A stretch of 52,649 nt of DNA from Christensenellales bacterium (GTDB lineage: Bacteria > Bacillota > Clostridia > Christensenellales > DTU072). A program made the translations under genes and the position numbers. The notes under the pieces are model-generated. The model did not search any database, was not told the origin of the DNA, and was given only the letters and a program-made list of their open reading frames with translations. The stretch spans positions 1 to 52,649 of the forward strand of contig JBJETX010000079.1 in assembly GCA_051883535.1 (NCBI GenBank), written 5' to 3'. This document shows positions 1-19,184 of the stretch, in pieces. Positions within the stretch are counted from its first letter, which is position 1, and each line of letters opens with the position of its first letter.

Positions 1-3000
1 TTGTTTTCGCGCAGGTTCACGTCTCCCGTAGTCGGCAGATATCCGTCGGGCGAAACGACAACCGCCGCCTGTCCGCTCTGTGCGAGCAATACGTCTTTTA
101 TCTCTTCGTAAAGTCTGCAGACCTCGTCGTCGCACTTCGCCGTTCCCGCAACCGTATCGTACATCACCTTGCGTCCGTAGGACTCGCATCCGACGGTTCC
201 GCACGCAAGCGTAAGTTCCGTCGTTCCCGTCGCGGTGTGCGTATGTCCGCACTTATTGCAGACGAAGGAAAGATTGTTCAGGTTGAGGACGTAGTTTATT
301 CCCGTTTCCTCGCATACGAACGTCGCCGTATTGCCGTTTACTTCGACGAAAAGTCCGTCAAGCGTAACGAACGCGATTTCGGAAATCGTCATTCTTTCGC
401 AACTGTACGTCGCCTTGGTCGGCGCGGTGGAGTCGCTCTGTTCTTTGAGTCCGTCGAGCGTGAACTGTCCCACGTCGGCGTTTCCGAGGTAAACCAGACA
501 GCCGCTCTGCTGCGACAACTGATTGTTGACGACTCTGTTCTTCTGCAACGCTTCCCAATAGATGACGTATCTCTTACGCGCGTTGACCGCCGCCATCGTG
601 TCGTCGTCCGTGCCGTATTCGAACAGCCTGCTGTCTTCGGGATAGAACAGTTTTCTCACGAACCCTTCTTCCTTATCCTGCACTTTTATGCCCACGAACG
701 CTCCCGACGCGTCTTCTTCGAAGATTATTCTCTTTACTCCCTTTTCTCCCGTAACCGGGTCGGGCATAATTATTCTCACAGCAAACGCCACGAGGTAATA
801 ATCCTCTGCGGAATACGGCGTGTACGCCGAGAAGTAGAAACCGAGAGGATTCATATACACGAATCTCCGTTGTTCTCCTTCCGCTTCGAAAATCGTGCCG
901 CTCGCCGCGTCCGTTCTGCGATAGAACCCGGCGTAACTCCATTTCGCCACGAACACGCTCATCTCGACTTCCTGTCCCGCGTCGCTCTCGATTCTGCCTT
1001 TTACGACCTGCTTCGAGCCGTCGGTAACCGTCGTTATGTTGCCCGTGGGCTGAATTCCCACGTTGTTCCATCTGACCGTCATCATCTGTCCGCCTACGAT
1101 AATTCCCGCGGGCATATCGTCCGCCTGCGAGAATTCAAACGGATTGTAAACGTACAACGACTGTCTGACGAGTTTTCCGCTTTCGCCGTACTCGTTCGCA
1201 AACGTATACACGACGGTTCTCTGCGCGTCGTATCCCGAGAACTCGGACATCTCTTTGTTTCCGAATCTGTCCTCGTATTTAAGGGTGTACGCTATTTTGC
1301 CGTTCGCCTCGTAATCGGAAGGCGTCGCAAGCGTAGCGTCGTAAGCGTAATAATAAACGTATCCCGAACGCGCCTTATACATATAATAAAGTCCGTCCGA
1401 AGTCAGTTTGCCGTCGTACGTTCCGTCCGCCGCGTACGCAAGACCGTCTTCGATATATTCCGTCGTAACGCTCTTGTCCTCGTCCGCGAGCACGCGTCTT
1501 TCGGCAATCGCCGCCATATGTATGACGACGCTTTCTCCCGTAACTCCCGAACCGAGCGTTCCGCTGAGCGTTCCCGTAATTCCCGCGTAACTTACGTTGC
1601 CCGTAACTCCGTCCACGCTCCACGCGATTTCGGTCTCGTACGGTTTTCCGCTTTCGTCGTCCGTTCTGTCGTCGCCCGAGAAGAACACGAGAATCCTGTG
1701 CGGCACCGCGCGATAAGAGTAATACGGTTCGATAAAGTATTCCGCGAGGTTCGCGTCAAGCAACGCGGCAAACCTGTCGAGAGAATATCCGCTCGCGCCG
1801 TATCTGCCGACTTCGATAATCTGCCCGTTGATCTCCTGCATATTCTTTATCGTGCCCATATATTCCGCTTCCGCGTATACCGTTTCGGTGAAACTCTTTA
1901 TTCCCGCGATTATAAGGTTGCGCAGAACGTCCGTCACCGCCGCTCCGCTCACGAGACTCCTTCTCAAAGAGTTTATCGTCGTGGCGTAGTTCGTTATGGC
2001 GTTATACGAATACCTTATTACGTTGCCGAACAGTCCTTCGTACTCGTTCCATCTCGCCATATCTCCGCCCGTAAACGCGGTGAAGTCCATCGCCTCGCGC
2101 ACGGCGTTTACAAGGTACGCTCTCATAACTTTCTTCGTCAGTCCGGCGGCGGTTCTGTTATACGCGTAGTTCTTTACGAACGCGTCGAACGTATACGTTT
2201 CCGCTTTTACTCCGCCGTAAGCCGTTCCGCCGAATCTGTGTTTATTCAGATCGAGTCTGCTTTCGAACAGTCCGATTACCGTTTCTTTTATCGCCGCCGC
2301 GTCCGCGTCTCCCGCTACGACGGTTGCGTCCGCATAGTCGTACGCTTCCAGAATCGCCTGTACGATAGCCGCATATGCGAGTTCTTCGTAAGTGTATTTA
2401 TTTGTCAGTTTCTGCGCCTGTCCGGCGGATCCCGAACGGTAAACGGGCAACGCCGTTCCGTCGCCGTATTTTACCGTAGCCGCTTTATCCGCGGCGGACA
2501 ACTCGGAATAATTTACCTTTCTGCCTCCGACCGTGTAATCGACGTATTCGGGAAGGAAACCGAATCCGATTTCTTCCGCGTCCGCAACGTCTATCTGCTT
2601 GGCGGCAAACTCCGCGCTTACTCCGCTCTTTTCGAGCGAACGCAGTTTGTATACGTCCGCGATTACCGCGTCCGCGTCGAACCCGGCTTCTATCATATTC
2701 TTATAGCCGATCGCGTCGTTGTACTCTTCGTCCGTCATGCCGTCGAGTTCTACGGCAAACATTCTTTCGTATTCTTTCTCGACGCAACCCCTTATAGCCG
2801 CGTTGTATCCGCTTTGTACGAACTCGTCGAAGTACGCCGCGATTTTCTCGTTTATCGACTTTTCTTTCGCCGTGTTCGAACCGCTTCCGCGGATTATCGA
2901 GAGTATCGACGTAACGTACGACCCCGCGTTTTCTCCGTCGTAATACGCCAGCGCGATCGCCGCGGCTTTCAGTTTGTCGAGCGCGTAGTTGTAACTCTCG

Positions 3001-6000
3001 TCCTCGTCGTACGCCCTTCTTGCCGGCAACGCGCTTTCGTCGTAAATTCCTCTGAACGCGATTTCCGTCGTCCAGGCAAGCAGTTTTTCGCTGACTGACG
3101 CAGCCGTCGTTCCCACGTCGGGCGTTATGCTGATATTTTCAATGGAAAGGCGTATGCCGCTCCTTATTTCCTGCGCCGCCGCAATTACGTTTTTCAGGTT
3201 GGTTTCCACCCTTATAAGGTTTACTCCCGTAAGCAGAGAACTCTGATACGCCGTGAAGTCGCTGCGTTTCTCCTCGTATATCGCGTTCCTTATAGCCGCG
3301 TCGTCGATATCTATCACGGCAAGCGCGTCGTTGTAAATAAGGCTCGCTTTCTGAGCGTATCCGCTTGTTCCGACGGTGTACAATTTTACTTCCGTTCCTT
3401 CGATTACGGCGTTTTTCTGCTCATCGCTGAGCAGGTTGTACCTTACCTGCTGTCCGTCTTCGTAATACGGCTCGTAGTAGTACAGCAGATTCGCCGCTTT
3501 CGCGTATCCGTCTTCCCCTTCGACGAACAGATATTTATCCGTCGTGCCGACCTTTTTCGCTCTTTCCGATTCGGGCAGATCGGCGTAAAGCACTTTGCTG
3601 TCGTCTATCAGATATTCGGTATAATAGACTATTCCTTCCGTCTCCTTGGGCCGTTTGTTGTGGAAATAGAATCTTATGTCGAGATTCTGTTCCAATCCGA
3701 GTTCGACGGTAAGTTTAAGTTCTCTTTCGTTGAGCAATCCGACGCTTATTCCCGACAAATCGCCCGAAGACGACGTCATCGCCTCAACGTCTATTCCTCT
3801 CGCGTCGAAGTAAATTTTCGTTACTTCCCTCGTTCCGCCGTAAACATACCTGACTCCCGAGAACGAGAAGGTCTCTCCGCTCGTGTAACTTGCCAGCAGG
3901 TCGGTCGGCAATTCGAGGTAATGCCTGCCGTCGTCGTCGGTCTTTATCGCGCCTTTTCTCACCGCGTCGGTATCCGCATACGCGTCGATATAAACTCTGT
4001 ATACGCGTTTTCCGCCGCTTTCGAGCGTCTCCGTCGCAAGCCCGTTGCCCCTGTCGTCCGTCTCCCACGGGAGAAGCACTACTTCGGCGGATTTTATCTG
4101 TACGTACAGAGAAATCGCCGTCGTTCCGAAACGGTTGCCCGCGCTGTCCGTACAGCCGAGAATCTCCGCCGTAGCCATAACGTATTTGCCCGTCGTTCCC
4201 TTATAGGTAAGCCCGGAAAGCACCGAATCGGGCGCGCCGTACCACACGGGGTTGATTTTCCATTTGACTCCGCTTACGTTTATCGTTCTGCCGTTTACCG
4301 ACACGTTTATCGTGGAAGGCAGATACTTCGTTCCTCCGAGATATTCCACTACGCCCGGATTGGTGAAGTCGTATACGTTATCCACGGTTATCAGACCGTC
4401 GGATACGGCGAACGTTCCGGTATCGGCAAACGACGCGGAAGGATTACCTCCCGAGAACCCGTCGTTCATGCTTACGGGCAGTTCTTCGAACACTATCGTC
4501 CTCTTGATTCTGAACCCTTCGCTCGTAAGCGCGCTGATCGTAATCTGCCTGTTCTTTCCCGTAGCGTAAATCGCTTCCGCGGGAATAAACGATATTACGT
4601 CTCCCGCGTTTATTCCGTCTATGTTGGTCGGGTTGCCGCCCGACATTACTTCGACGTACCACTCCGAAAGTTTTTCGTCGGTCGCGTTGCGGTTGTAATT
4701 GAATTTACGCGTGTTGTTCGTTCCGTCGTTGACTATCGCCGTAACCGTCGCGCTTACCGAGTTACCCATAATATATCCGTCCGAATACTGCGCCGCGCCG
4801 CCCGCGGTGTATACGGTAACTTTGACGGTTTCCGTTCCGCGCGAATCCTGCGTGAGGTAATATCCGCCCGTAAATACGAGTTTTGCCCTGAGGTCGTACG
4901 ACCCCGTTCCCGTTCCCAACGCAACGACGTATTTTCCGTCGGGCATCGGGTCTCCCGAGTCTCTCGGTCTTACGAGCATATCGTTTACGTCCATTATTTC
5001 GTAAAGATTCTTTATCGAAATATTCTTGTTCGCAACGGTCCTGGTCGTTCCCTCGGACACGCGCAGATAACGGTAATAATTCGTCAGCCTGTATACGATT
5101 TCGCGGTAACTCATGGTAACCGTACGGTTGAGACTGTTTTTCAGTTCGATTTCTCCGCCGTCTCTCAATCCGAGAGAAGAATCGATTTCCACCTTCTTTT
5201 CTTCGGAATGATAACTTACGTACGCGGAAAGCAGACTTGCCGACCCGAAGGGCGCGCCGTTCGCGTCCGTCGTTACGCCGTTTACCGAAACGACTCTCCA
5301 ATCAACGTATTTTTCCGCCATATCCTCGCCGATAATGTAAGCGGCAAGTTCCGCGTAACTTATATTCCGCGCCGCAGATTCTCCGTAACTTATGGTGAGC
5401 AGTCCGTTCTCGTTCACCGCCGCGGTGTACTCGACTCCCGTCCCGGGGTCGATATATTTAAGTTCCACGGTCATTACGTCCGCGTTTCCTTCCGCAGGGC
5501 GGAACTCGTATTTAACCGTAGCCGCTTCCCTGATCGATACGGTAAGCGTCGCCGTTCCCCTTCTCATAAGTATGGAATGGTCGAATACCGACGCTTCGTC
5601 GTTAATAATCTTCTGCGACGCCATATCGGTTTCGTATTTGTTGAGGCTGAGCGTCGCTCTCGAATACAGCGAAGTTATGAATTCGTACACGCCGACCGAT
5701 CTGCGCCATACGTATCTGCCCGTTTCCGCGTCAAGCGTATAAAGTCCGATTTCTCCTCCGGGCGTATCTCCGTCCTCGTCCGCTCCCGTACTGATATGAA
5801 TATAGTAGGCGGACGTGCTCTGATAGTAGTATCCGATTTCCTTGCCGTCCAGTTTGAACAGGCTTCCCACCGTTACTTTTCTGTCGAGAACTTCTCCGTT
5901 CTCGCTCTTTATCGTCACGTAATACGAACTGAACTCGTTGCTTACTTCCATCTTGTTGAGTTCGTAGTTTTCCACCACGACGACGAGATAAATGTCAACC

Positions 6001-9000
6001 GTAACGCCGCCGTCCGTTCCTATCGTGGTAACCAGCGTCATTACCGTGTTCGGCTCGAAAATGAAGTCCGCGCCGGTTTTCGCAGGTCTCCAGGTCGGAA
6101 TGTAAATCTGCGTATGTCCGTCGCTGAACGTCGCCACGAGCCTGTCGGGCAGTCTGAAGTTTTCAAACGTATTCGCGTAATAGGTGTAATACGTCAGTTT
6201 CGTCATAGAACTTCCCGAAACGACTTCGGTTATCGTCGCGGGCGTTTCCAGTTTTTCTCCCGTGGAATTGACGTAGAAGTCCACGTTCGTCGGGTCTTTG
6301 CTGAGAATTCTCACCGCCACCGTGATTTCGCGGTATCCGCTCGTCGCGTTTCCTATCTTAACCATTGCGCGGAAGATAAGTTCTTCGGTGAGTTCCTCGA
6401 CGTCGATAGCGACTTTATAACGCGTCTTTCCGCTTGCGTCGGTCACGACTTCTATAATCGGTACGTACGCTCCCTTCTCGGAATCGTAATAGGTATAAAC
6501 GGGGTTGCCCGCCGCGTCAAAGTACGCGCACCAGGAAAGATTGCCGAAAGTATGCGCGCTTACGAACCCTTCGTATCTGAAATAGATTTTCAGCGAATCG
6601 GGCAGATAAAGCGTTTCCGCGTTAAGCGGATCTACTTTGTAATATCCGAGCGCGCCTTCGTCTCCCGCGTCAACCTTGTTCATAACGAAAGTCTCTCCGG
6701 TAAGCCTGTCGGTTTCCGGTCCGACCACGTCTACGTCGAGTTGCGGACAATCGGCGACTATTCTCAGTTCTATCAGCGAGAAGTCGGTTATGCCCACCGC
6801 CTGATCGTTGAGGTGATCTGGATCGATAATTCCGTTGGAAAGCGTGCTTATCGCGTAAAGTTCGTTATCCAGCGAGAAGTACAACCTGAACAGGTAATAC
6901 AAATCCAGTCCCGCGGTTGTTATCTGATCGGGATTATCGGTGTTGAATCCGTATTTTGCCCTCGTCTCGGCGTCTCCCGCAACGTAAAGTTCGTACTCTT
7001 CTTCCGTAAGATGCACGGGTACGTCCGGATTGCTCCTGAGATAGAAGTAATAGAACGGACGGTTGTACGCCGTGGTTTCGCCCTCTACGTCCGTATCCCT
7101 TATCATGGCGTTGCCGACGCGGTCGGATTTGTATTTCGTCGCCTCTCCCGAACCGTATTCGACGGTAAATACCGTTCCTCTGAGTTCGGACGCGGAAAGA
7201 ACGGTTCCGAGTTCGGAATACGTCCAGTTGTTTCTCACTTTGACTCTGCCGTCCGCGGTTTTAACGTACAGATAATCTTCCGTGACGGTTTTGTCCGTAC
7301 GGAATATCTTGACTTTCTTTGCTCTCAGCGTTTCGCCGAGCGCGTCGTAACGCTGTTCGAGGTCGGTGTATTCGTTCTCTTTGTACAGATAAGAATACGC
7401 GTATTCCCCGTAGGACGAACCCTTGCTCGTTACGTTGATTATCGCGGGATTTCCCCACTTGACGCGGTACGAATCGTCGATATCGTACGCTCCCGAATAC
7501 GTTCCGTCGCCGTTTTTCAGCAATCCCCTCACTATCTGCATATCGAAAACGTACTCGTACTCGTTTATGCCGTCGGTAAATACGAAAATAGGTCTGCTTT
7601 CTATCTCGTAAGTGCTTTCGTCGTAATAGTTGCCTCTGTAAACGCCGTTGACGTACGTGTCCGTCGCGCCGTTGCCCGCGTTATAACTTTCGGGCGAGAA
7701 TTCGTCGGTATCGTAGAATTTAAGGTGAGAAAACTCTCTCTTTCCGATATTAACGCGCAAGGCGATAAGTTGTCCGCGGAAGTAAGTATGAAGATAAATC
7801 GTTCCGCCGAGAGGAGAAACCGAGGTTTCGACGTTGTTGCCTTTCTCGCATATATCGTAACTCCAGTCGTAACGCGTAAGAACTCCGTCCGCGTAGTTGT
7901 CGTAACTTCTCGCAATATACGTATTGCCGACGTCGTTGGCGTACAGATAACTCTGCTGCCATGCAAATTGTATGGAAAACGCGAATTTCGCCTGAGAGAA
8001 ATATGCCGCGGAGAACGCCTTTACCGCTTCCGCGTACGCGCTTGCGACGTCTTCGCGCGAATGAAGAATCGCGGGATTGAAGTTCGCGGTGTCGGAAAGA
8101 TACGCGTATTTTGCGATCGCGTAATCGTACGGATCCACGCTGATTTCGTCCACAACGGGCGCGCGGGAAGCGACTTCTTCTTCCGTCGTGTAAACGGAAA
8201 CGTAATCGTCGGTGTCTATTTCTCTGTTTACCACGATTATTCTGACGGGGAAGGTTATCTCGCCCATCATTCCGGGCGCGACGATAACTTCGGTTACCGT
8301 CATATATCCTTTTTTGTCGGCGGAAGCGAGGTTCCAGTCGATAACGAATCTCGCGTTGAAGTTTTTCAACTGCGTCGTGGTGCTGTCCGTCTTTACGTTG
8401 ACTTCCACGCTTTCGCGCAGGGGTTCGCACGGCTCCATAACGTAGAGAGAGATCGGCGTTTTCGTACTCGAAATAAGCACGCCGTCGTCGTCGTAAACTT
8501 CCACGACGTATTCTTCGTCCGCTTTGCTGTAATACTGCGGATATCCGCTCGATTCGTCGTAATAAAGCGTCTCTATCTTACCGAGTTCGCCCGAGTCGAG
8601 ACTCTCGAAAGTGATAAAGTATCTTCTCACTTCTCCCATAAAACTGCCGTTGGTTCTCGGCGCGTACTGCGTCTTGCAATCCTCGGTTATCTTTATCGAA
8701 TCGGGGTCGTATTCGAACAGCAAATCCCTGTCGGTGCTTACGGATATATAAGCGTGATCGCCGTTTTCGTCCTCGACCGCGCGGTTCCTGTCGAAGAAGT
8801 AATAACTCGCCCCTTCGTCGTGGAACACGACTTCGTTTATTCCCGCCCAGTAAACGTATACCGTTCCGTCGTCGCCGACTTCGATATACTCTTCCCTTAC
8901 CTGACGCTGTTTTCCGTAATACGTCCTGTAATAATACCTTCCCTCGTTTTCGTAAACGAGCATATTCTCTTTGCTTCTTTCCTTCGTCGGGTCGAGAATA

Positions 9001-11984
9001 AGGTCGTCAAGCACGAATTTAACGCGGGAAATATCCTGATTGTCCGCGCTTTCCTTGTTGAAGAACGAACTCGACGCGTAGTCGATATTCTGCCTCGAAA
9101 CGACTCGTCTCGCCCCGAGTTCGAACAGATATATCGTTCCCGCAAGTATCATCGTTCCGTCGTCGAGAATAACGTTGTCCTTGTAAACGAGAAAGTCGTA
9201 TTTAAGCGGGTCGTATTCGTCCATATAGTCTTCGTAGAAGTACACGGGAAGTCTGTCGTGCAACGCGGTGTCGTACGGGCTGTTTCCCGTTATGTTGTCG
9301 AAGAATCCGACTTCGTACATAAGATACTGTTTTCTTATCGATTCAAGACCTTTTACGCGGTATTCGAACCCTGCGTCCACTTTGATATTACCGATAAGCC
9401 CGTTTACTCTGAACAGGTTCTGCAACGTTTCGTTGGAAGAAGTTATTTCGAGTTGTTCCGCCGCGGCGATAACGTACGCGTCCTTGCAGAGCGCGGTTAT
9501 GATACTCGTAAGCGACAGGTTGAAATCGTTGTCCGCAAAACTCGTCACGTCGTCCTCAATCGACGTTTCGTTGTTCATATACGCCGACATAGACGCCATG
9601 AACACGTCCTCTCGTATCTTTACCTTAGGTATAACCTGAGTTCCGTTTTTCGTAACGCACGCGATGTTGACCCAGACGTAACCGAGTTCGTCTTCTCTCG
9701 CCGGCAAATCCTTGTATACTTCGTTGTCGAAACATACGTCGTCCGACGCAAGTCCGATTATTATCGAACTTTCGCTTCCCGTCAGCCATACGGTGAGTTC
9801 GAACGCGCTCCTTCCCGCTTTTTTCAGCCGCCCGTCCGCATACTGATCCTTTACGAATTGGTCGTAAATAAGCGTAAACGACAGCCCCGCGTTCTGCGCA
9901 AGCACGTACGGCGTGTTAAGACCCGAACTCTCGCCGATGGTGGCGGACAGCAATTTACTTAAATCGACGGTCTCCTGCGAACTGAATATGAAATTACCCC
10001 TGAGCGTACCCGAATAGGTGTAAATCTCGCCCAAAGGTTTGAAGTTTGTGAAGTCTATCTCGGTAATCGAGACGTATTCGCCGAAATGTATGGGAATGAG
10101 TTCCAACCGGAAAATCATCGTCGAGGGTTCGCCCGGAACCACGCCGACGTTGGTATACATAATTATCGTGAATTCCTGCTTGTCGACGTCCCACGTAAGC
10201 GTGAAATACGTCTTTTCGAGCATTATCTCCGCGCTCGCTATGCCGAGCATAATGGCGATCTGATCCATCGTATACGGCATCATCGAGTCGAGAATGTTGA
10301 TAATCTGTCTCGTCGAATACGAACCCACGCCCGTTTCTTCGAGCATCTGTTTGACGAGTTCTATATCGAGTTGCAACGTTTCGCTGTTTATCGAGAATAT
10401 GTCGTCGGGGTCTTTCTCCGTGAAACTCGTCTTCGCCATAAGGTATTCGAGAACTTTGTTCTCTTTGTCCGACGACGCCGGGTTCAGTATGGAGTCCACT
10501 ATGGAAACGATTACGTTGTTCACCATCCGGAAGAACTTACCGAGCACTTCGGCAAGGTCGAGATGTTCGTCGTATACCTGCGGGAACCCGAGGGATTCGA
10601 CGTCCACCCAGCCGTACATATACGCCATACCCGATATGTCGAGCCACGCCCTCTCTTCGCGGTAGTACAGACCTATCATAAGTTCGCCGTTGGCTATGTC
10701 GCGGAATTCCATAAACACGTTGTTCGTGCTGTTGTCGTATTGCTGAATGTCCGTCTTGATTTCCGCGTCGAACTGCGCGTCCCACGCCGGAACGTAGAGC
10801 ATACCGTCGAACTCGTAGTTACCGTAATCGAACATCGTATAATACTGCGTGTCGAGCGTAAGCGTTTTGGGATACGTCCAGCCGTAGTCGAATTTTATGT
10901 TGGAAGTGTACGTGTAAAGAACGTCGTAACTGTTTACCACGCCGCCGAAAGCGAATTCCGCGTTCGTAAGAACGTTGGTAACCCCGCTCTTGTCCGGCGA
11001 TATTATCGCCCGCATGTCCGCGTTTATCGTCTGAATGAGCGCGTTCGCCACCGTACTGAATTTGAATCCGAGGAACTTATACGTCATCGGGTCCCATTTA
11101 CGCCCGAATACACCGAGCAGGTCGTAAATAAGTTCGTTCACGTTGCCCGCGATTGCGTCCAACGTAACGGAATAGAACAGCAGGCTTATAAGGTCGCCGT
11201 TCACCACTCGCTTGTAGTTTTCGCCGACAAGGCTGGTCAGGGTCGAGTTAATCGAACTCGTTCCCGCGTCTCCCTGCAAACCGAGAGATTCGAGCAATCC
11301 TTCGACGGAGAGATTTACGAGAAGTCTCACGAGTTGCTGATAAATAACCGTGTCGCCGAAATCGGGGAAACTGCGCTTGTAACCCTGTACGTTCATATAC
11401 AGAATATTCCCGGGGTTGTCCGCGTTGCTGTTGAGTCCGTCGAAGTACAGACCTATAAGAACCTCGTTGGTCGCGCCGTTGTACCATTCGATGCAGATAT
11501 CGGATTTCTTTATCGCTTCGTTATGAATTTCCAACGCGCTTACGAGCGTTCTCGTACCTTCTTCGTTATTCTCGTCGTAATATTTTCCGTTTTCGTAATA
11601 TTTGTAGATGGGGTTTCCTTCCTCGTCCTCGTAAGGATAGGTATAGAGATAAGCCTGAACGCGGAGAGCGAAGTTGCCGGCGGTATTGTCGCTCGGATCG
11701 AGAATATCGATGTCGAAATCCACGCCCATATAGTAACCGCTGTCCACGAAAGACTCGCTGTCGAGATATTTACGCAAAGCGGTAATGGACTCGGTGAATT
11801 CGTCTACGGCTTCCTCGTTGGTCGTATGGTCTTTGTTGTAATAGTTTCCCTGATTGTCGTTTATGTAGTAGGTGGAATCTCTGACGGGATCCTCCAGTTC
11901 GCACGCCGAAAGCACGACGGAAAACATCAGCGCCGCCAGCACGCACATCAGGAATTTTTTGAAAAGACCGTTTTTCGTACCCAT
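1..11984 (-). CDS. giant predicted lipoprotein, N-terminal >=3994 codons (3' end lies beyond the left edge)
   Basis: Absent from the ORF track because there is no in-window stop. I reverse-translated by hand the frame whose codon low coordinates are 0 mod 3, at 11984-11460, 6000-6059, 3060-3180 and 3-600. All four stretches give ordinary protein with no stops. N-terminus is MGTKNGLFKKFLMCVLAALMFSVVLSAC/ELEDP, a signal peptide with an LSAC lipobox. GGGGAGG lies 9 nt upstream of the ATG at 11984-11982. No other minus ORF of this frame is listed in 1-11984. The three long + ORFs here are in exact antisense register and are R/V/F-rich. Confidence 0.8.
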   Translation of the reverse strand, partial: MGTKNGLFKKFLMCVLAALMFSVVLSACELEDPVRDSTYYINDNQGNYYNKDHTTNEEAVDEFTESITALRKYLDSESFVDSGYYMGVDFDIDILDPSDNTAGNFALRVQAYLYTYPYEDEEGNPIYKYYENGKYYDENNEEGTRTLVSALEIHNEAIKKSDICIEWYNGATNEVLIGLYFDGLNSNADNPGNILYMNVQGYKRSFPDFGDTVIYQQLVRLLVNLSVEGLLESLGLQGDAGTSSINSTLTSLVGENYKRVVNGDLISLLFYSVTLDAIAGNVNELIYDLLGVFGRKWDPMTYKFLGFKFSTVANALIQTINADMRAIISPDKSGVTNVLTNAEFAFGGVVNSYDVLYTYTSNIKFDYGWTYPKTLTLDTQYYTMFDYGNYEFDGMLYVPAWDAQFDAEIKTDIQQYDNSTNNVFMEFRDIANGELMIGLYYREERAWLDISGMAYMYGWVDVESLGFPQVYDEHLDLAEVLGKFFRMVNNVIVSIVDSILNPASSDKENKVLEYLMAKTSFTEKDPDDIFSINSETLQLDIELVKQMLEETGVGSYSTRQIINILDSMMPYTMDQIAIMLGIASAEIMLEKTYFTLTWDVDKQEFTIIMYTNVGVVPGEPSTMIFRLELIPIHFGEYVSITEIDFTNFKPLGEIYTYSGTLRGNFIFSSQETVDLSKLLSATIGESSGLNTPYVLAQNAGLSFTLIYDQFVKDQYADGRLKKAGRSAFELTVWLTGSESSIIIGLASDDVCFDNEVYKDLPAREDELGYVWVNIACVTKNGTQVIPKVKIREDVFMASMSAYMNNETSIEDDVTSFADNDFNLSLTSIITALCKDAYVIAAAEQLEITSSNETLQNLFRVNGLIGNIKVDAGFEYRVKGLESIRKQYLMYEVGFFDNITGNSPYDTALHDRLPVYFYEDYMDEYDPLKYDFLVYKDNVILDDGTMILAGTIYLFELGARRVVSRQNIDYASSSFFNKESADNQDISRVKFVLDDLILDPTKERSKENMLVYENEGRYYYRTYYGKQRQVREEYIEVGDDGTVYVYWAGINEVVFHDEGASYYFFDRNRAVEDENGDHAYISVSTDRDLLFEYDPDSIKITEDCKTQYAPRTNGSFMGEVRRYFITFESLDSGELGKIETLYYDESSGYPQYYSKADEEYVVEVYDDDGVLISSTKTPISLYVMEPCEPLRESVEVNVKTDSTTTQLKNFNARFVIDWNLASADKKGYMTVTEVIVAPGMMGEITFPVRIIVVNREIDTDDYVSVYTTEEEVASRAPVVDEISVDPYDYAIAKYAYLSDTANFNPAILHSREDVASAYAEAVKAFSAAYFSQAKFAFSIQFAWQQSYLYANDVGNTYIARSYDNYADGVLTRYDWSYDICEKGNNVETSVSPLGGTIYLHTYFRGQLIALRVNIGKREFSHLKFYDTDEFSPESYNAGNGATDTYVNGVYRGNYYDESTYEIESRPIFVFTDGINEYEYVFDMQIVRGLLKNGDGTYSGAYDIDDSYRVKWGNPAIINVTSKGSSYGEYAYSYLYKENEYTDLEQRYDALGETLRAKKVKIFRTDKTVTEDYLYVKTADGRVKVRNNWTYSELGTVLSASELRGTVFTVEYGSGEATKYKSDRVGNAMIRDTDVEGETTAYNRPFYYFYLRSNPDVPVHLTEEEYELYVAGDAETRAKYGFNTDNPDQITTAGLDLYYLFRLYFSLDNELYAISTLSNGIIDPDHLNDQAVGITDFSLIELRIVADCPQLDVDVVGPETDRLTGETFVMNKVDAGDEGALGYYKVDPLNAETLYLPDSLKIYFRYEGFVSAHTFGNLSWCAYFDAAGNPVYTYYDSEKGAYVPIIEVVTDASGKTRYKVAIDVEELTEELIFRAMVKIGNATSGYREITVAVRILSKDPTNVDFYVNSTGEKLETPATITEVVSGSSMTKLTYYTYYANTFENFRLPDRLVATFSDGHTQIYIPTWRPAKTGADFIFEPNTVMTLVTTIGTDGGVTVDIYLVVVVENYELNKMEVSNEFSSYYVTIKSENGEVLDRKVTVGSLFKLDGKEIGYYYQSTSAYYIHISTGADEDGDTPGGEIGLYTLDAETGRYVWRRSVGVYEFITSLYSRATLSLNKYETDMASQKIINDEASVFDHSILMRRGTATLTVSIREAATVKYEFRPAEGNADVMTVELKYIDPGTGVEYTAAVNENGLLTISYGESAARNISYAELAAYIIGEDMAEKYVDWRVVSVNGVTTDANGAPFGSASLLSAYVSYHSEEKKVEIDSSLGLRDGGEIELKNSLNRTVTMSYREIVYRLTNYYRYLRVSEGTTRTVANKNISIKNLYEIMDVNDMLVRPRDSGDPMPDGKYVVALGTGTGSYDLRAKLVFTGGYYLTQDSRGTETVKVTVYTAGGAAQYSDGYIMGNSVSATVTAIVNDGTNNTRKFNYNRNATDEKLSEWYVEVMSGGNPTNIDGINAGDVISFIPAEAIYATGKNRQITISALTSEGFRIKRTIVFEELPVSMNDGFSGGNPSASFADTGTFAVSDGLITVDNVYDFTNPGVVEYLGGTKYLPSTINVSVNGRTINVSGVKWKINPVWYGAPDSVLSGLTYKGTTGKYVMATAEILGCTDSAGNRFGTTAISLYVQIKSAEVVLLPWETDDRGNGLATETLESGGKRVYRVYIDAYADTDAVRKGAIKTDDDGRHYLELPTDLLASYTSGETFSFSGVRYVYGGTREVTKIYFDARGIDVEAMTSSSGDLSGISVGLLNERELKLTVELGLEQNLDIRFYFHNKRPKETEGIVYYTEYLIDDSKVLYADLPESERAKKVGTTDKYLFVEGEDGYAKAANLLYYYEPYYEDGQQVRYNLLSDEQKNAVIEGTEVKLYTVGTSGYAQKASLIYNDALAVIDIDDAAIRNAIYEEKRSDFTAYQSSLLTGVNLIRVETNLKNVIAAAQEIRSGIRLSIENISITPDVGTTAASVSEKLLAWTTEIAFRGIYDESALPARRAYDEDESYNYALDKLKAAAIALAYYDGENAGSYVTSILSIIRGSGSNTAKEKSINEKIAAYFDEFVQSGYNAAIRGCVEKEYERMFAVELDGMTDEEYNDAIGYKNMIEAGFDADAVIADVYKLRSLEKSGVSAEFAAKQIDVADAEEIGFGFLPEYVDYTVGGRKVNYSELSAADKAATVKYGDGTALPVYRSGSAGQAQKLTNKYTYEELAYAAIVQAILEAYDYADATVVAGDADAAAIKETVIGLFESRLDLNKHRFGGTAYGGVKAETYTFDAFVKNYAYNRTAAGLTKKVMRAYLVNAVREAMDFTAFTGGDMARWNEYEGLFGNVIRYSYNAITNYATTINSLRRSLVSGAAVTDVLRNLIIAGIKSFTETVYAEAEYMGTIKNMQEINGQIIEVGRYGASGYSLDRFAALLDANLAEYFIEPYYSYRAVPHRILVFFSGDDRTDDESGKPYETEIAWSVDGVTGNVSYAGITGTLSGTLGSGVTGESVVIHMAAIAERRVLADEDKSVTTEYIEDGLAYAADGTYDGKLTSDGLYYMYKARSGYVYYYAYDATLATPSDYEANGKIAYTLKYEDRFGNKEMSEFSGYDAQRTVVYTFANEYGESGKLVRQSLYVYNPFEFSQADDMPAGIIVGGQMMTVRWNNVGIQPTGNITTVTDGSKQVVKGRIESDAGQEVEMSVFVAKWSYAGFYRRTDAASGTIFEAEGEQRRFVYMNPLGFYFSAYTPYSAEDYYLVAFAVRIIMPDPVTGEKGVKRIIFEEDASGAFVGIKVQDKEEGFVRKLFYPEDSRLFEYGTDDDTMAAVNARKRYVIYWEALQKNRVVNNQLSQQSGCLVYLGNADVGQFTLDGLKEQSDSTAPTKATYSCERMTISEIAFVTLDGLFVEVNGNTATFVCEETGINYVLNLNNLSFVCNKCGHTHTATGTTELTLACGTVGCESYGRKVMYDTVAGTAKCDDEVCRLYEEIKDVLLAQSGQAAVVVSPDGYLPTTGDVNLREN

Positions 11985-12040
11985 CAAGAAGTACCTCCCC
12001 GAGAAAAAAGAGCATAGTATACCCTTTTTGCTTTGTAAAT

Positions 12041-12069
12041 ATTATATATATTTTCTCCTTGCCTGTCAA
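12041..12069 (-). promoter_or_regulatory. sigma-70 promoter of the giant lipoprotein gene
   Basis: The minus strand reads TTGACA-17 nt-TATAAT, a perfect consensus. The -35 is 12069-12064 and the -10 is 12046-12041. This leaves a leader of about 50 nt with a GGGGAGG RBS. Confidence 0.7.
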
Positions 12070-12179: not shown

Positions 12180-12208
12180 TTGCTTTTTGCGGCGCGTTAT
12201 GTTAAACT
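12180..12208 (+). promoter_or_regulatory. candidate extended -10 promoter of ecfA1 (leaderless geometry)
   Basis: TTGCTT (12180-12185), a 17-nt spacer, then TGtTAAACT (-10 at 12203-12208). The ATG at 12216 follows after 7 nt, and there is no Shine-Dalgarno. Confidence 0.45.
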
Positions 12209-12215
12209 CTCAACT

Positions 12216-13049
12216 ATGGCGTCGATAATCGAAATAAATGACGTGTCTTTTTCTTACAAGACCGACGAATCTCTTGCCGTGGGCGTTAAAAACGTCTCCC
12301 TCTCCGTTGAAGAAGGGGAATTTTTCGTGTTGCTCGGGCATAACGGCAGCGGAAAAAGCACGCTCGCAAAACTTATAAACGGCTTCATTTCCCCCGACGA
12401 AGGGAAAATCACGGTCGCAGACATCGACGTCTCCGACGAAAACCGCGTTTTCGACCTGCGTTCCACCGTCGGTATGGTTTTTCAGAACCCCGACAATCAG
12501 ATGGTCGCGTCCATAATCGAAGACGATATCGCTTTCGGTTGCGAAAATCTCGGCGTTCCGCCCGAAGAAATCCGCCGCCGCGTGGACTGGGCGTTGGAAA
12601 CCGTCGGTATGTCCGACCGCAAAGACGGAACTCCTTTCAAACTGAGCGGAGGGCAGAAACAGCGCGTGGCAATAGCCGCGATTCTCGCCATGCTCCCCAA
12701 AGTCCTCATTCTCGACGAAAGCACCTCTATGCTCGACCCCGAGGGCAGGAAAGAAGTTCTCGACACCGTACGCACCCTTAACAAGGAACACGGTATGACG
12801 GTAATACTCATCACCCACTATATGGACGAAGCCGTCTCCGCCGACAGAATAGGCGTTATGAACGGAGGCGAACTCTTTCTTACAGGTTCTCCGAACGAAG
12901 TGTTCGGGAACCCGAAAGTCCTTAAAGAAGCAAGATTGGAACTTCCTTTCGCGACGGCGGTCGCATACGAACTCGCCGCAAAAGGCATTCCCGTCGGAGT
13001 CTGTCTCGACGACGACGCGCTCACGGAGGAACTATGCCGATTGTCGTAG
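12216..13049 (+). CDS. ecfA1: ECF transporter ATPase component EcfA1
   Basis: Track ORF is 12180-13049. Motifs: Walker A GHNGSGKST, signature LSGGQKQR, Walker B LILDEST. It is the first of two tandem ABC ATPases followed by ecfT. I prefer ATG 12216 (MASIIEINDVSF) over TTG 12180. Confidence 0.9.
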   Translation: MASIIEINDVSFSYKTDESLAVGVKNVSLSVEEGEFFVLLGHNGSGKSTLAKLINGFISPDEGKITVADIDVSDENRVFDLRSTVGMVFQNPDNQMVASIIEDDIAFGCENLGVPPEEIRRRVDWALETVGMSDRKDGTPFKLSGGQKQRVAIAAILAMLPKVLILDESTSMLDPEGRKEVLDTVRTLNKEHGMTVILITHYMDEAVSADRIGVMNGGELFLTGSPNEVFGNPKVLKEARLELPFATAVAYELAAKGIPVGVCLDDDALTEELCRLS

Positions 13050-13900
13050 AAAATCTCTCGTTTACTTACGGCAAAAAGTCGCCGTTTGAAAAAAAGGCTC
13101 TCGACGGAGTGTCTTTTTCGGTCAGCGACGGCGAATTCGTCGGCATCGTCGGCAGCACGGGAAGCGGCAAAAGCACTCTTATTCAGCATCTCAACGGACT
13201 TATAAAACTGACCGACGGCAAGATAGTCGTCGACGATATCGATCTCACGGCGCGCAAGCCCGATCTTCAGAAACTCCGTAAAAAAATCGGTATGCTTTTC
13301 CAATACCCCGAGTATCAGTTGTTCGCCGAAACCGTTCTCGAAGACGTTAAATTCGGTCCGCGCAATTTCGGTATGAGCGACGAAGAAGCGACTCGGAACG
13401 CGGAAAACGCGTTGCGCATGGTCGGACTCGATTTCGACGCGATAAAGGAACGCTCTCCGATAGAACTCAGCGGCGGAGAGAAGCGTCGCGTAGCCGTCGC
13501 CGGCGTTCTGTCGTATAATCCCGACTTTTTAATTCTCGACGAACCGACCGCCGGGCTCGACCCCGCGGGCAAACGCGATATGCTCGACCTGCTTACCTCC
13601 CTCCGTTCTTCGGGCGCGGTGAAAACCGTAATAATGGTAAGCCACAATATGGATGAAATAGCCGAATACGCCGACCGCATAATCGCAATGTCGGCAGGCA
13701 GGATAATCTGCGACTCCACCCCGGAAAAATTCTTTTACGACTCGTACGACGAAAGCATCGGACTCGCTCTTCCGCACGCCGTTTCCGTCACGCAAAAACT
13801 CGCTTCCCGCGGCGTGGTTCTTCCCTGCCGACCGTTGACGCGCAGACAACTCACGGAATGCCTGTCCGCCTTTTTTGCGGGAAAAGGAGGGAAAGCGTGA
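13034..13900 (+). CDS. ecfA2: ECF transporter ATPase component EcfA2
   Basis: Motifs: Walker A GSTGSGKST, signature LSGGEKRR, Walker B LILDEPTAGLD. It overlaps ecfA1 by 16 nt. Confidence 0.9.
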   Translation: MPIVVENLSFTYGKKSPFEKKALDGVSFSVSDGEFVGIVGSTGSGKSTLIQHLNGLIKLTDGKIVVDDIDLTARKPDLQKLRKKIGMLFQYPEYQLFAETVLEDVKFGPRNFGMSDEEATRNAENALRMVGLDFDAIKERSPIELSGGEKRRVAVAGVLSYNPDFLILDEPTAGLDPAGKRDMLDLLTSLRSSGAVKTVIMVSHNMDEIAEYADRIIAMSAGRIICDSTPEKFFYDSYDESIGLALPHAVSVTQKLASRGVVLPCRPLTRRQLTECLSAFFAGKGGKA

Positions 13901-14712
13901 ACAGAGAAATCGTTTTCGGGCAGTACTATCCGGCGTCCTCTTTTATCCACAAACTCGACCCGAGAATAAAACTTTTCGCCGTCCTCGTCTTTATCGTGGC
14001 GGTCTTCCTCTGCGACACCTTCTACGCTTACGCGGCGTGCTACGCTTTTCTGTTAATCGTAATTTTGGTATCCCGAGTCCCGATTTTAAGCGTCCTGAAA
14101 ACCGTAAAAGCGATATTGTTTATTATTATTCTTACGGCGATTATAAACGTATTTTTCTATAAGGACGGAAACGTCCTCTGGGAGTGGAAGTTCCTGAGAA
14201 TAACCGACGGCGGTCTGATTTACGCCGCGAAGATGGCTCTTCGCATTATCTTCCTCGTCGTATCCACGTCCATGCTTACGTTTACTTCCACCCCGATGGC
14301 TCTCACCGACGGAATGGAAAGTCTGATGAAACCTCTTGCTTTTCTTCGTTTCCCCGTGCACGACGTCGCGGTTATTATGAGTACCGCGCTGCGCTTCATT
14401 CCCACCCTTATGGAAGAAGTCAACAAAATAATAATGGCGCAGAAAGCGCGCGGCGCGCATTTCGACACGGGCGGTTTGTTCAAGCGCGCGAAAGCGCTTC
14501 TGCCCGTTCTCATTCCTCTTTTCGTATCCACGTTCCGCAGGGCGGACGAACTCGCGATGGCTCTCGACGCGCGTTGTTACAACGCTACGCCGCACCGCAC
14601 GAAAATGAAACCTCTGCGTTTTTCTTACCGCGATTTAATCGCGTTTATCGCGCTTGCCGCGTTTATGACGCTCATCGTGCTTCTCAAACTCGGCTTTTTC
14701 GGTCTTATCTGA
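13897..14712 (+). CDS. ecfT: ECF transporter transmembrane component EcfT
   Basis: Track ORF is 13858-14712. The product is polytopic. FIHKLDPRIK and AQKARGA motifs are typical of EcfT/CbiQ. GTG 13897 overlaps the ecfA2 stop as GTGA. Confidence 0.85.
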   Translation: MNREIVFGQYYPASSFIHKLDPRIKLFAVLVFIVAVFLCDTFYAYAACYAFLLIVILVSRVPILSVLKTVKAILFIIILTAIINVFFYKDGNVLWEWKFLRITDGGLIYAAKMALRIIFLVVSTSMLTFTSTPMALTDGMESLMKPLAFLRFPVHDVAVIMSTALRFIPTLMEEVNKIIMAQKARGAHFDTGGLFKRAKALLPVLIPLFVSTFRRADELAMALDARCYNATPHRTKMKPLRFSYRDLIAFIALAAFMTLIVLLKLGFFGLI

Positions 14713-14728
14713 CGGCGGCGGTGTCGAT

Positions 14729-15478
14729 ATGAGAGTGATGATAACCGTAGAATACGACGGCACGGATTTTTGCGGATGGCAGATCCAACCCGAAAAAAGA
14801 AGCGTTCAGGGGGTTTTGCAGGAGGCTCTTTCTTCCGTTCTCGGCGAACCCGTGGTTCTTCACGGAAGCGGCAGAACGGACGCCGGCGTTCACGCCGTCG
14901 GGCAAACCGCGCATTTCGATATTTCCCGCGATTTTCCCTTAAACAAACTCGCCCTCGCCGTCAACACGCGCCTTCCGCGCGACGTAAGCGTAAAAACTGC
15001 CGTCGAAGCGGACGACGATTTCGAGGCGCAATATTCCGCCAAGAAAAAAACTTACCGTTACGACTTTTATTTATCGCGCGTTTCCCGCCCTCTTTCCGAC
15101 CGCTACGCGGCGCGGGTTCCGTATTCGGCGGAAAATTTCGACGTAAACAAAGCAAAAGACGCTCTTTCGTTTATAGAGGGAACTCACGATTTCGCGGCGT
15201 TTTCCAACACGGGACGCCCGGTAAAATCTTCGGTACGCACGATTTATTCCGCGTCGATAACCGACCGCGGAAACGGCGCGTATTCGATTGTTCTGACGGG
15301 AAACGGATTTTTATACAATATGGTCAGAGTAATTACCGGAACGGTAGTCGAGGTCGCGCTGTCGACAAGACCCGTTTCCGACGTGAAAAAAGCCCTCGAA
15401 ACGGGCTTACGGTCTTTCTGCGGAAAGACGTTCCCGCCGCAAGGGCTTACGCTCGTATCCGTCGATTACGACGTCTGA
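14729..15478 (+). CDS. truA: tRNA pseudouridine(38-40) synthase TruA
   Basis: Motifs VEYDGTDFCGWQIQP and GSGRTDAGVHA. It follows ecfT, as in the conserved Firmicute cluster. Confidence 0.9.
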   Translation: MRVMITVEYDGTDFCGWQIQPEKRSVQGVLQEALSSVLGEPVVLHGSGRTDAGVHAVGQTAHFDISRDFPLNKLALAVNTRLPRDVSVKTAVEADDDFEAQYSAKKKTYRYDFYLSRVSRPLSDRYAARVPYSAENFDVNKAKDALSFIEGTHDFAAFSNTGRPVKSSVRTIYSASITDRGNGAYSIVLTGNGFLYNMVRVITGTVVEVALSTRPVSDVKKALETGLRSFCGKTFPPQGLTLVSVDYDV

Positions 15479-16378
15479 TTACTTCGCCCGTCGTTTACGC
15501 AAGCGATAATTTTTCGTGCCGCCGGACGCGGTTTTTTTCATTTCTATATCGTTTTTCAGATCCTTCCACCCCCAAATGAAACCTATTGCGTGCGCGAGAA
15601 TTTCGCCGTACACCATAAGCGGACAGAACAGCCATACCCACGGCCAGTAGTAATCTCCCGTTCTGTATCCGAACCCGTGTTTCATAAACTCGGGAACGAG
15701 AGCGGTTAAAAATCCGAGTTTCCCTTCCATCTCCGCGGTAAGTCCGAATATGTAAACGCTGTTTCTCTCCGACGGATCCGCTATCATATCTTCGAGCGTC
15801 GACACGGTAAATCCCGCGGCGCGCAGCACGAGTTCGTTAAGCGCGATCACGCCGAGAACGATAAACAGGCTGATAGGCGCGCGCCAGAAACGTTTATAAT
15901 GCGGTCTGTGCACTCCGTATACAAGCGTATAAAACGCCTGCATAAACAGCAGAACGTGCGACAGATAAAATCTTATCGATTCGAGCCTGAACGGAGCGTA
16001 TCCCCACGCGCCCGTCGGCACGAAAATCGCCGCCGCTCCACCTATCATTCCGAGGAATACGACGTAATCTTTCGCCGTGTCGCTTTTGCTCATCATAACG
16101 AACGGATAAATCAGAACGCTCACCGCGCATATGTTCTCGAACGTACATTTGCGCCAACTCATCGGATAATCCGCCTGATATTCCGGAAGAAGCATTTTCA
16201 GAAAATGCACCGCAAGGTTGATAAACGACAAAGCAAGCACGTAATAAAATTTCGCTTTATCCGACGCCTTCCGGAAGGGGAAATACCCCGCGACGATAAC
16301 CGCCGCGGAAACGATTATATAGAAAAAATACCATACGTTGCCTAATTCAAGCGTACCCATTACCGCACCCCGCCTCAA
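15479..16378 (-). CDS. polytopic integral membrane protein (YwaF/TMEM164-like, weak)
   Basis: 299 aa with about 8 hydrophobic segments. The family assignment is from memory only. TTG 16378 overlaps the permease stop as TTGA. ATG 16360 (MGTLELGNVWYFF) is an alternative start. Confidence 0.6.
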   Translation of the reverse strand: MRRGAVMGTLELGNVWYFFYIIVSAAVIVAGYFPFRKASDKAKFYYVLALSFINLAVHFLKMLLPEYQADYPMSWRKCTFENICAVSVLIYPFVMMSKSDTAKDYVVFLGMIGGAAAIFVPTGAWGYAPFRLESIRFYLSHVLLFMQAFYTLVYGVHRPHYKRFWRAPISLFIVLGVIALNELVLRAAGFTVSTLEDMIADPSERNSVYIFGLTAEMEGKLGFLTALVPEFMKHGFGYRTGDYYWPWVWLFCPLMVYGEILAHAIGFIWGWKDLKNDIEMKKTASGGTKNYRLRKRRAK

Positions 16379-17454: not shown

Positions 17455-18413
17455 TTCTTTTCTCCTCCGTTTTCCGTAACGGACATAAAAAATTCCTCGA
17501 GCGAGGTTTCTTTTTTCGATATTCCGAGCACGTTTACTCCCGACAAAATGAGTTCTTTCGCCACGTCGTTTACGGGCTTTTCGGTGGTAAATCCCACTTT
17601 GCCGTTCCCGAGAATAATACTGTCAAGACATAAAACGTCTTTCAGCACGTCTTTCGCCTTCACCACGTCGTCGGTAACGAGGATTATTTTGTTCCCTTCC
17701 GTCTTTTCTTCTATGTCTTCTCTCGTATAAACTCCGCTTATCTTTCCCTTGTTAATAATGACGAATTTATCGCAGGTCATCTGAATTTCGGTCAGCAGAT
17801 GGCTGCTCACGAGCACCGCCATTCCGTATTCTTTGCTGAGTTTGATAAGAACGTCTCTCACTTCTTTTATTCCCGACGGATCGAGACCGTTCGTCGGCTC
17901 GTCAAGAATGAGCAAATCGGGTTTGCACAGCAACGCCTGCGCTATGCCGACGCGTTGTTTCATTCCGAGCGAATACTTTCTTACGGGGTCGTTGCGCCTT
18001 TCGTAAAGACCGACCATTTTCAGAAGTTCTTCCGAGCGCTCCTTTACGTTTTTGCGAAACTCCGCGCCCGTTCCGAATTCTTTTTCTCCGCCGAGCGCGG
18101 CAAAATATTCGAGATTTTTCATCGCGCTCCAATCGCGGTACAAATCGGGGTTTTCCACCACGCACCCTACGCCGGCAAGCGCGGCGACGCGTTCTTGTTT
18201 TATATCGAATCCGTTTATTCTCACCGTTCCCGAAGTCGGTTCGGCAAGTCCCACGGCGATTTTAAGCGTCGTGCTTTTCCCCGCTCCGTTTTTTCCGATA
18301 AATCCGACTATTTCGCCTTTATCCACGGTAAACGAAACGTTTTCCGCGGCGGTAACCGTTCTTCCTTTGCTTTTGTACACCTTGGTTACGCCGTCTATTT
18401 CGAGTACAGCCAT
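17451..18413 (-). CDS. ABC transporter ATP-binding protein (ABC-2 exporter type)
   Basis: Motifs: Walker A GKNGAGKST, signature YSLGMKQR, Walker B LLILDEPTNGLD. Confidence 0.9.
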   Translation of the reverse strand: MAVLEIDGVTKVYKSKGRTVTAAENVSFTVDKGEIVGFIGKNGAGKSTTLKIAVGLAEPTSGTVRINGFDIKQERVAALAGVGCVVENPDLYRDWSAMKNLEYFAALGGEKEFGTGAEFRKNVKERSEELLKMVGLYERRNDPVRKYSLGMKQRVGIAQALLCKPDLLILDEPTNGLDPSGIKEVRDVLIKLSKEYGMAVLVSSHLLTEIQMTCDKFVIINKGKISGVYTREDIEEKTEGNKIILVTDDVVKAKDVLKDVLCLDSIILGNGKVGFTTEKPVNDVAKELILSGVNVLGISKKETSLEEFFMSVTENGGEKK

Positions 18414-18418
18414 ACTCT

Positions 18419-19168: not shown

Positions 19169-19184
19169 ATTCGTTCTCCTTTTA

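Follow-up and report, generated by a model that had tools for sequence, protein, structure and literature searches.

A giant minus-strand lipoprotein gene in a Christensenellales genome and its clade-restricted family of predicted surface proteins

Introduction

Which strand encodes protein in the left 12 kb of a Christensenellales contig, and what could that protein do? The stretch analyzed here (contig JBJETX010000079.1 of assembly GCA_051883535.1; 52,649 nucleotides, hereafter "the window" as a whole) carries three long plus-strand open reading frames (ORFs) at its left end according to its ORF track. A first-pass annotation, made from the letters of the sequence, had dismissed these ORFs as nonsense and proposed in their place an unlisted minus-strand gene of at least 3,994 codons encoding a giant lipoprotein. 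We found that this gene is real and under purifying selection, and that its product belongs to a small, uncharacterised and clade-restricted family of giant lipoproteins from metagenome-assembled genomes (MAGs) of Christensenellales and other Clostridia. We further consider what the protein is likely to be, and conclude that it probably serves as a lipid-anchored surface adhesin or fibre together with a paralogous partner.

A minus-strand gene under purifying selection

Reverse-complement translation of positions 3..11984 (minus strand) gave 3,994 codons without a single in-frame stop, and the frame continues past the left edge of the window. With the stop frequency of 0.048 per codon calculated from base composition, an open frame of 3,994 codons would be expected by chance with a probability of about 1e-86. 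The GC content at codon positions 1, 2 and 3 (0.51, 0.38 and 0.65) also showed a normal coding pattern. A scan of GTDB species representatives returned a single relative, locus L001, on a MAG contig of an uncultured Christensenella sp., in which a complete ORF of 4,292 amino acids (aa) starts from the equivalent ATG. This ortholog was 85% identical to the window protein across all 3,994 residues, with no insertions or deletions over 12 kb. Nucleotide differences between the two genes numbered 451, 303 and 1422 at minus-frame codon positions 1, 2 and 3, and the codon changes comprised 1,098 synonymous and 600 non-synonymous ones; this bias towards the third position of the minus frame, together with the synonymous excess, indicates purifying selection on the minus strand. 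Judging from the length of the ortholog, about 294 C-terminal residues of the giant lipoprotein lie past the left edge of the window, and the full product would have ~4,292 aa and a mass of ~480 kDa.

The alternative, in which the minus frame is non-coding and the three plus-strand ORFs are the true genes, has a probability close to nil in our judgement. The ORFs (237-3098, 3660-9962 and 10086-12017) are long, at 953, 2,100 and 643 aa, but all of them lie in one shared antisense frame and are rich in Arg (12-17%) and Val (14-16%), and we therefore interpret them as shadow ORFs. Together with this composition, the excess of third-position changes in minus-frame codons and the 64 homologous clusters of its product refute the plus-strand ORFs as real genes, and the minus-frame protein also yielded confident structure models (see below).

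Start signals and predicted lipoprotein anchor

The start codon, signal peptide with lipobox, ribosome-binding site and promoter that the first-pass annotation had read by eye were all confirmed in place. A sigma-70-type promoter (12041..12069, minus strand) agrees with TTGACA-17-TATAAT at 12 of 12 consensus positions. Its hexamers and spacing are identical upstream of the L001 and L003 orthologs, and near-consensus versions precede the genes of L004, L006, L007 and L002, so that the promoter is conserved or near-consensus in seven loci overall. By direct reading, the ribosome-binding site GGGGAGG (11994..12000, minus strand) lies 9 nt before the ATG at 11984, and GGGAGG or GGAGG is kept in relatives. 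Between the -10 box and this site, a leader stem-loop of about 10 pairs followed by a T-run (12005..12029, minus strand) was recovered as an RNAalifold consensus hairpin in six loci; the equivalents in L001, L003, L004, L007 and L002 keep most of the pairs, and covariation across the six loci is weak, with changes on both sides in just one pair. The hairpin might act as an attenuator or, as a 5' stem-loop, stabilise the mRNA.

The first 28 residues (11901..11984, minus strand) form a lipoprotein signal peptide, MGTKNGLFKKFLMCVLAALMFSVVLSA followed by C, with the lipobox L-S-A-C at aa 25-28 and Cys28 as the predicted lipidated residue. It has what is expected of Lgt/LspA substrates, namely an n-region with positive charge, an h-region of hydrophobic residues and a lipobox of the form [LVI][ASTVI][GAS]C, and the signal peptide is the only transmembrane-like hydrophobic segment in the protein. 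The lipobox Cys is nearly invariant in family alignments, and a signal peptide of the lipoprotein type opens every complete member. From these sequence features we infer diacylglyceryl modification at Cys28 and cleavage by signal peptidase II. The mature L001 ortholog has a mass of about 479 kDa and an acidic isoelectric point of 4.5, and its C-terminus (...YEYDLLQMILQ) contains no LPXTG motif, hydrophobic tail or membrane anchor.

An uncharacterised family of giant lipoproteins

The first-pass annotation had recognised no described family in the protein, and this view was upheld as far as curated libraries are concerned. The window protein had no match in Pfam, whether its full sequence or 500-aa tiles of it were searched (up to E 5), none in NCBIfam or PADLOC, and none among PDB sequences by phmmer or by profile. 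The N-terminal module described below lacked a Pfam match even at E<=10, as did the C-terminal 799 aa of the L001 ortholog even at E<=0.1. An Rfam scan of the whole window gave no match, and a literature search returned nothing on a giant paired lipoprotein family.

The protein is not unique, however. An exhaustive HMMER search, in which a profile of the first 940 residues was run against 1.84 billion representatives, identified 64 clusters, 44 of them with E<1e-30, and the full-length ones were nearly all 2,300-6,800 aa long. In a word-indexed protein search, the only matches had been two N-terminal fragments from Clostridia MAGs, P0001 (82%) and P0002 (43%), and the C-terminal 1,000 aa had drawn no match; because this search missed full-length relatives of 78-82% identity (P0003 and P0004), a null result from this kind of search does not amount to orphan status for giant proteins. 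About 20 of the family clusters can be aligned collinearly along almost the entire window protein, for example P0003 (52%), P0004 (47%), P0020 and P0007. The named members are all annotated as "hypothetical protein" and come from Christensenellales, Christensenellaceae, Clostridiales or Clostridia MAGs, and one partial entry is binned as Spirochaetia. Within the window, the lipobox, the N-terminal module of about 900 aa and the long, collinear, non-repetitive body that mark the family are present, and the partner gene would fall past the left edge.

Conservation in the family peaks at aa ~100-900 (~67% identity within the subgroup) and drops to 10-35% distally, and identity to the L001 ortholog changes from 90-95% at aa 1-1200 to 75-78% at aa 2801-3600. 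Family length varies two- to three-fold. Pfam scans of 13 relatives, which took in members up to 5,000 aa and excluded the inserted regions of 5,000-6,800-aa relatives, found Big_4 in 4 of 13, weak Beta_helix matches in 2 (best E 2e-4) and MBG_3 in 1.

Domain architecture

The conserved N-terminal module, the part that defines the family, extends from aa 29 to ~930 (9195..11900, minus strand) next to the membrane anchor, and is 95% identical to the ortholog at aa 401-800. The AlphaFold2 model of aa 1-940, built from a 32-sequence alignment, reached a mean predicted local distance difference test score (pLDDT) of 80.5 and a predicted template-modelling score of 0.72, and shows long antiparallel strands interleaved with helices (alpha/beta). 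Foldseek against PDB found nothing significant for this model (best E 1.2e-3, query-normalised template-modelling (TM) score <0.15), and a fold search against BFVD gave no match. The weak neighbours, namely LolA/LolB, AttH/kievitone hydratase, DUF1329, lipovitellin and S. aureus SAOUHSC_02783, are open or half beta-barrels, with Foldseek probabilities up to 0.9 and target TM-scores up to 0.42. The matches to LolA were non-significant, at a Foldseek probability of 0.77-0.91 and a target TM-score <=0.30, and we treat the resemblance in the model as a weak lead only. Invariant polar residues of the module include E166, D182, K203, R220, D298, N418, K789, E792 and D793, and aa ~180-700 are the only part of the window protein common to the partner subfamily.

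Beyond the module, aa 941-2140 (5565..9164, minus strand) were predicted by AlphaFold2 and Foldseek to form a chain of beta-sandwich domains of immunoglobulin (Ig)- or cadherin-like type with one helical hairpin. The model (26-sequence alignment, mean pLDDT 81.6) consists mostly of short strands, the hairpin and two low-confidence linkers. Foldseek against PDB gave 137 matches at E<=1e-3 (best E 2.9e-7), headed by desmoglein and protocadherin ectodomains, the multidomain Bifidobacterium bifidum BbgIII and the Ca2+-stabilised ice-binding adhesin MpIBP; their TM-scores are low because relative domain orientations differ. This region is thus predicted to be built like an adhesin stalk, with domains that have diverged beyond sequence recognition. 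The first-pass annotation had called the protein unlike most giant adhesins, and while this holds for the sequence, it does not hold for the modelled structure, which is a string of beta-sandwiches like those of cadherin and adhesin ectodomains.

Near the end of the modelled stalk, aa 1941-1966 (LPDRLVATFSDGHTQIYIPTW; 6087..6164, minus strand) form a Big_4-like motif segment, whose orthologous segment in P0003 matches Big_4 with E 2.7e-7. LPxxVxV...W-type motifs occur at about seven sites in the window protein, including aa 2555, 2692, 3427 and 3624. The distal region, aa 2141-3850 (435..5564, minus strand), combines such motifs with alpha-rich stretches and is the least conserved part of the protein; it is collinear with about 20 relatives at 22-37% identity, and is 75-84% identical to the ortholog compared with 90-95% at the N-terminus. 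Faint profile links connect aa 2680-2783 to aa 1787-1902 and aa 3416-3500 to aa 1935-2010.

The absence of tandem repeats, also claimed at first reading, stands at the sequence level. A self-BLASTP of the window protein returned the trivial self-match alone, with no internal repeat. When a 17-sequence family profile was tiled against itself with hhalign, a single weak tandem duplication of 49 aa emerged, at aa 2787-2835 and 2836-2884 (3333..3626, minus strand). A piece spanning aa 3147-3221 contains one more related copy, at aa 3147-3198. These repeats scored hhalign probabilities of 86-88% and 67-69%, the former for the tandem pair. This region is mostly absent in relatives (occupancy 0.26).

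A paralogous partner gene and a conserved position

In L001, the stop codon of the ortholog is followed after ~50 nt by a second lipoprotein gene (MTKKRTKLLLFLLTLTIIATMFAMIAC...; coordinates 13944-23009), whose reading frame, at least 3,022 codons long, meets no stop before the locus ends. Its product resembles the window protein only at aa ~180-695, with 21% identity. The L001 partner belongs to a distant partner subfamily, recovered in the profile search at E 1e-32 to 9e-4, which comprises P0046, P0048, P0049, P0051-53, P0058, P0060 and P0066. In all seven related loci with context (L001 and L005-L010), an A-type gene comes first, and a second giant lipoprotein gene follows it on the same strand at a distance of 28-114 nt. 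The first and second genes encode 3,153 and 3,855 aa in L005, 2,770 and 3,601 aa in L006, 3,626 and 6,332 aa in L007, 3,928 and at least 1,425 aa in L008, 4,356 and 5,669 aa in L009, and 4,301 and 6,803 aa in L010. By BLASTP, the second genes of L005, L007, L008 and L009 group with the L001 partner, and those of L006 (P0048) and L010 (P0046) are members of the partner subfamily. In the six loci compared, the partner is a distant paralog whose similarity centres on the N-terminal module (~aa 180-700), and none of three partner proteins matched Pfam. A distant paralog, at least 3,022 aa long in L001, is therefore expected directly downstream of the window gene, past position 1.

On its other side, the giant gene is divergent from ecfA1-ecfA2-ecfT-truA (12180-15478, plus strand), and this synteny is kept in L001, L003, L004 and L009, while the L010 pair abuts rnpA-yidC-jag-mnmE. 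The location of dnaA (37399-38781) bears out the initial estimate that the gene lies about 25 kb from oriC, with dnaA and dnaN 24-27 kb away.

Possible function

We consider it probable, with some reserve, that the protein is a lipid-anchored giant adhesin or extended surface fibre acting as a two-protein unit with its paralog. After Sec export, Lgt/LspA processing at Cys28 would anchor the protein by its N-terminus on the outer side of the cytoplasmic membrane. There the N-terminal module would serve as a membrane-proximal base, which probably pairs with its homologous counterpart in the co-transcribed partner. From this base, beta-sandwich and helical domains, each of them unique, would extend in a long chain through and past the wall as a fibre on the order of 100 nm, and the faster-evolving distal part would provide surfaces for binding other cells, host glycans or particles.

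Several points weigh against this adhesin reading. No ligand-binding domain (lectin, leucine-rich repeat (LRR), vWA or similar) was recognised in the window protein by Pfam scans. The AlphaFold2 models cover aa 1-2140 of ~4,292 residues, and aa 2141-3994 include alpha-rich stretches of unassigned fold. The invariant polar residues of the N-terminal module might belong to an active or ligand-binding site, in which case the module would be more than a base. The case for a heterodimer with the partner comes from operon order and paralogy, and the expression, lipidation, surface exposure and binding of the giant lipoprotein are all predictions. Finally, the consensus promoter of this 13-kb gene points to an abundant product, as would be expected of a structural envelope component at least as much as of an adhesin.

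The main rival builds on this last point and sees in the two giant lipoproteins an abundant structural scaffold of the envelope, a spacer or a surface-layer-like coat, which would set wall architecture in Christensenellales and have no specific external ligand. The perfect consensus promoter, the origin-proximal site and the leader hairpin suggest high constitutive expression, the position beside core genes is kept in the loci listed above, the pair of giant genes is conserved across the family, and the negative search for ligand-binding domains agrees with a scaffold as well. However, a distal part that evolves faster than the base, and a two- to three-fold length variation by domain gain and loss, look more like an interaction surface than a lattice, and the window protein has no SLH, CWB2 or other wall-binding domain in Pfam. 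We regard a scaffold as unlikely on balance. The weak structural neighbours of the N-terminal model raise a further idea, that the module may be a LolA-like open-beta-barrel device for lipids or other hydrophobic ligands and the protein an envelope-spanning transfer or bridge system. That the best of these neighbours are all open or half beta-barrels, that the module carries many invariant polar residues, and that it is the portion common to both paralogs would fit such a device. Yet no fold match reached E<=1e-3 and the query-normalised TM-scores stayed below 0.15; no AsmA, TamB, LolA or other lipid-transfer Pfam match was found even at E<=10; the host is a Firmicute, with no sign here of an outer membrane to bridge; and the remaining ~3,300 residues appear as discrete beta-sandwich domains and are not groove-like. 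The chance of a lipid-handling system is very slim in our estimate.

A glycan-degrading surface enzyme or a polymorphic-toxin-type delivery protein, with its catalytic part beyond aa 2140 or in the off-window C-terminus, is hardly probable either. The models leave room for one, since they exclude 1,850 window residues and 294 off-window residues, and the weak Beta_helix matches in two relatives point in the same direction. Against it, neither RHS/YD, CdiA, hydrolase nor lyase families matched anywhere in the window protein (Pfam and NCBIfam), the ortholog C-terminus had no Pfam match in its last 799 aa at the threshold given above and is conserved between orthologs rather than polymorphic, and the gene that follows encodes a giant paralog instead of a small immunity protein. 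The adhesin reading can also be carried further, to a heteromeric, Christensenellales-specific surface machine whose N-modules would bind or transfer a hydrophobic or glycan ligand while stalks of >100 nm would tether partner cells, such as the H2-consuming methanogens that co-occur with Christensenellaceae. We give this extension a slim chance; if true, the locus would be a molecular basis of syntrophic contact.

Comparison with known systems

Giant surface proteins with Ig-like stalks are well known, and the closest likeness is to the giant adhesins with tandem Ig- or cadherin-like domains, such as MpIBP of Marinomonas primoryensis (PDB 4p99), SiiE, LapA and Bap/Ebh. The window protein shares their size class (>4,000 aa), acidity and, by prediction, extracellular location; its stalk as modelled (aa 941-2140) aligns by Foldseek with the MpIBP repeat region and with cadherin ectodomains, and we count the greater variability of the distal part relative to the base as a likeness as well. 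Bap, Ebh, SiiE, LapA and MpIBP, however, consist of tandem, sequence-similar repeats, which the window protein lacks, and such repetitive adhesins are attached through LPXTG and sortase or through type I secretion with an outer-membrane plug, whereas the window protein has an N-terminal lipobox. Neither the ortholog C-terminus nor the Pfam scans revealed an LPXTG or RTX/type I signal, and the window protein had no RTX, Big or cadherin match in Pfam. Further differences are the N-terminal module of ~900 aa with its unmatched fold and the pairing with a giant paralog.

Big_4 proteins (PF07532) share with the family the matches in 4 of 13 relatives and an LPxxVxVxxxxGxxxxxxVxW-type motif, found at aa 1941-1966 and other sites of the window protein, but this protein scores below the Big_4 gathering threshold and the motif covers a small fraction of its length. 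The partial likeness of the N-terminal module to LolA/LolB folds, consisting in long antiparallel sheets packed against helices, is weak and non-significant, has no counterpart in a sequence-family match, and concerns a module four to five times larger than LolA. Polymorphic toxins of the RHS/YD or CdiA type have RHS, YD or FHA repeats and end in a toxin domain that varies between members, with an immunity gene next to them, a combination that does not occur here.

In arrangement, the locus recalls the paired adhesins of Mollicutes, such as P1 with P40/P90 in Mycoplasma pneumoniae, P140/P110 in M. genitalium and the P97/P102 paralog pairs. In these pairs, two large surface proteins are encoded in a fixed operon order and act together, and P97 and P102 form paralog families. 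They are much smaller than the giant lipoproteins, and the anchor type of P1/P140 differs; our comparison concerns the arrangement.

Cysteine-rich segment and neighbouring lipoprotein genes

Two other lipoprotein genes lie in the window. Gene B (19185-30215, minus strand) encodes a giant lipoprotein of 3,676 aa with the signal peptide ...CIMASC, BspA-type LRR_5 repeats (E 1.5e-55) and Flg_new_2, and carries four HxCxxCG...CxxCG pairs at aa 2985-3587. Like the gene studied here, it encodes a giant protein with signal peptide and lipobox that is presumably exposed on the surface, but homology between the two was undetectable by BLASTP (best E 0.086 over 35 aa). Whereas gene B has LRR_5, Flg_new_2 and the four CxxCG pairs, the giant lipoprotein has none of these, and with no LRR_5 match it cannot be counted among BspA-type LRR proteins. 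The other gene (31234-32802, plus strand), with a GC content of 0.41 compared with 0.51-0.53 in the giant genes, encodes a 522-aa lipoprotein (MKKSFIARAFIIVLLIVGVFAVFSSC...) without a Pfam match, in which several CxxCG...H motifs and CxxC motifs occur.

The first-pass annotation had likened the Cys-rich end of the giant lipoprotein to both of these proteins. A Cys-rich insertion does exist at aa 3891-3956 (117..314, minus strand), where seven Cys residues are arranged as a lone Cys at 3891 followed by CNKCGH, CGTVGC and CDDEVC, that is, one CxxCG-H and two CxxxxC motifs. By column conservation, these Cys are kept in the window protein, L001, P0003, P0004, P0006 and P0009, and are deleted or substituted in the other 11 aligned members. 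Because most aligned members lack the segment, we interpret it as a lineage-specific insertion. Its alignment with the CxxCG regions of gene B and of the 522-aa lipoprotein was not significant, and the proposed kinship therefore comes down to a likeness at the motif level and is unsupported as homology.

Further along the window, at 36102-38918, dnaN and dnaA have GC contents of 0.38 and 0.43, and a 137-bp AT-rich spacer upstream of dnaA, with a GC content of 0.25, is likely the oriC region. Directly downstream of dnaN, a Lys/Asn/Ile-rich ORF of 413 aa (34839-36080, minus strand; GC 0.34) has no Pfam match. The GC contents of dnaN, dnaA and the spacer are all far below those of the giant genes (0.51-0.53).

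Additional lipoprotein-like genes without Pfam matches were observed near the giant pair in two related loci, at 7421-9703 in L007 (760 aa) and at 23670-25079 (469 aa) and 26059-30806 (1,950 aa, running off the locus) in L006. These suggest larger surface-protein neighbourhoods around the pair.

Significance

Compared with the giant surface proteins already known, the new elements of this family are the lipobox anchor, the lack of sequence repeats, an N-terminal module without a sequence or structural neighbour, and the pairing of giant paralogs in related loci. The protein is also absent from the curated family libraries searched. Giant genes of this kind appear to be overlooked or broken up in gene calling and annotation, as the ORF track of the window lacks this one and several database entries are partial. 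The ~900-aa module, with a confident model and no structural neighbour, may represent a new fold. The family also provides a clean case of a giant stalk made from non-repeated beta-sandwich domains, which is relevant to the question of how proteins of great length escape misfolding and recombination.

Christensenellales are widespread anaerobes of guts and digesters whose surface biology is almost uncharted. The pair would commit ~22-33 kb, about 1% of a genome that we take to be a few Mb in size, to two proteins that no searched domain database recognises. Throughout the order the two genes keep this arrangement, downstream of a consensus promoter and beside core genes. If these proteins are surface fibres, they would be prime candidates for cell-cell or host attachment in Christensenellales.

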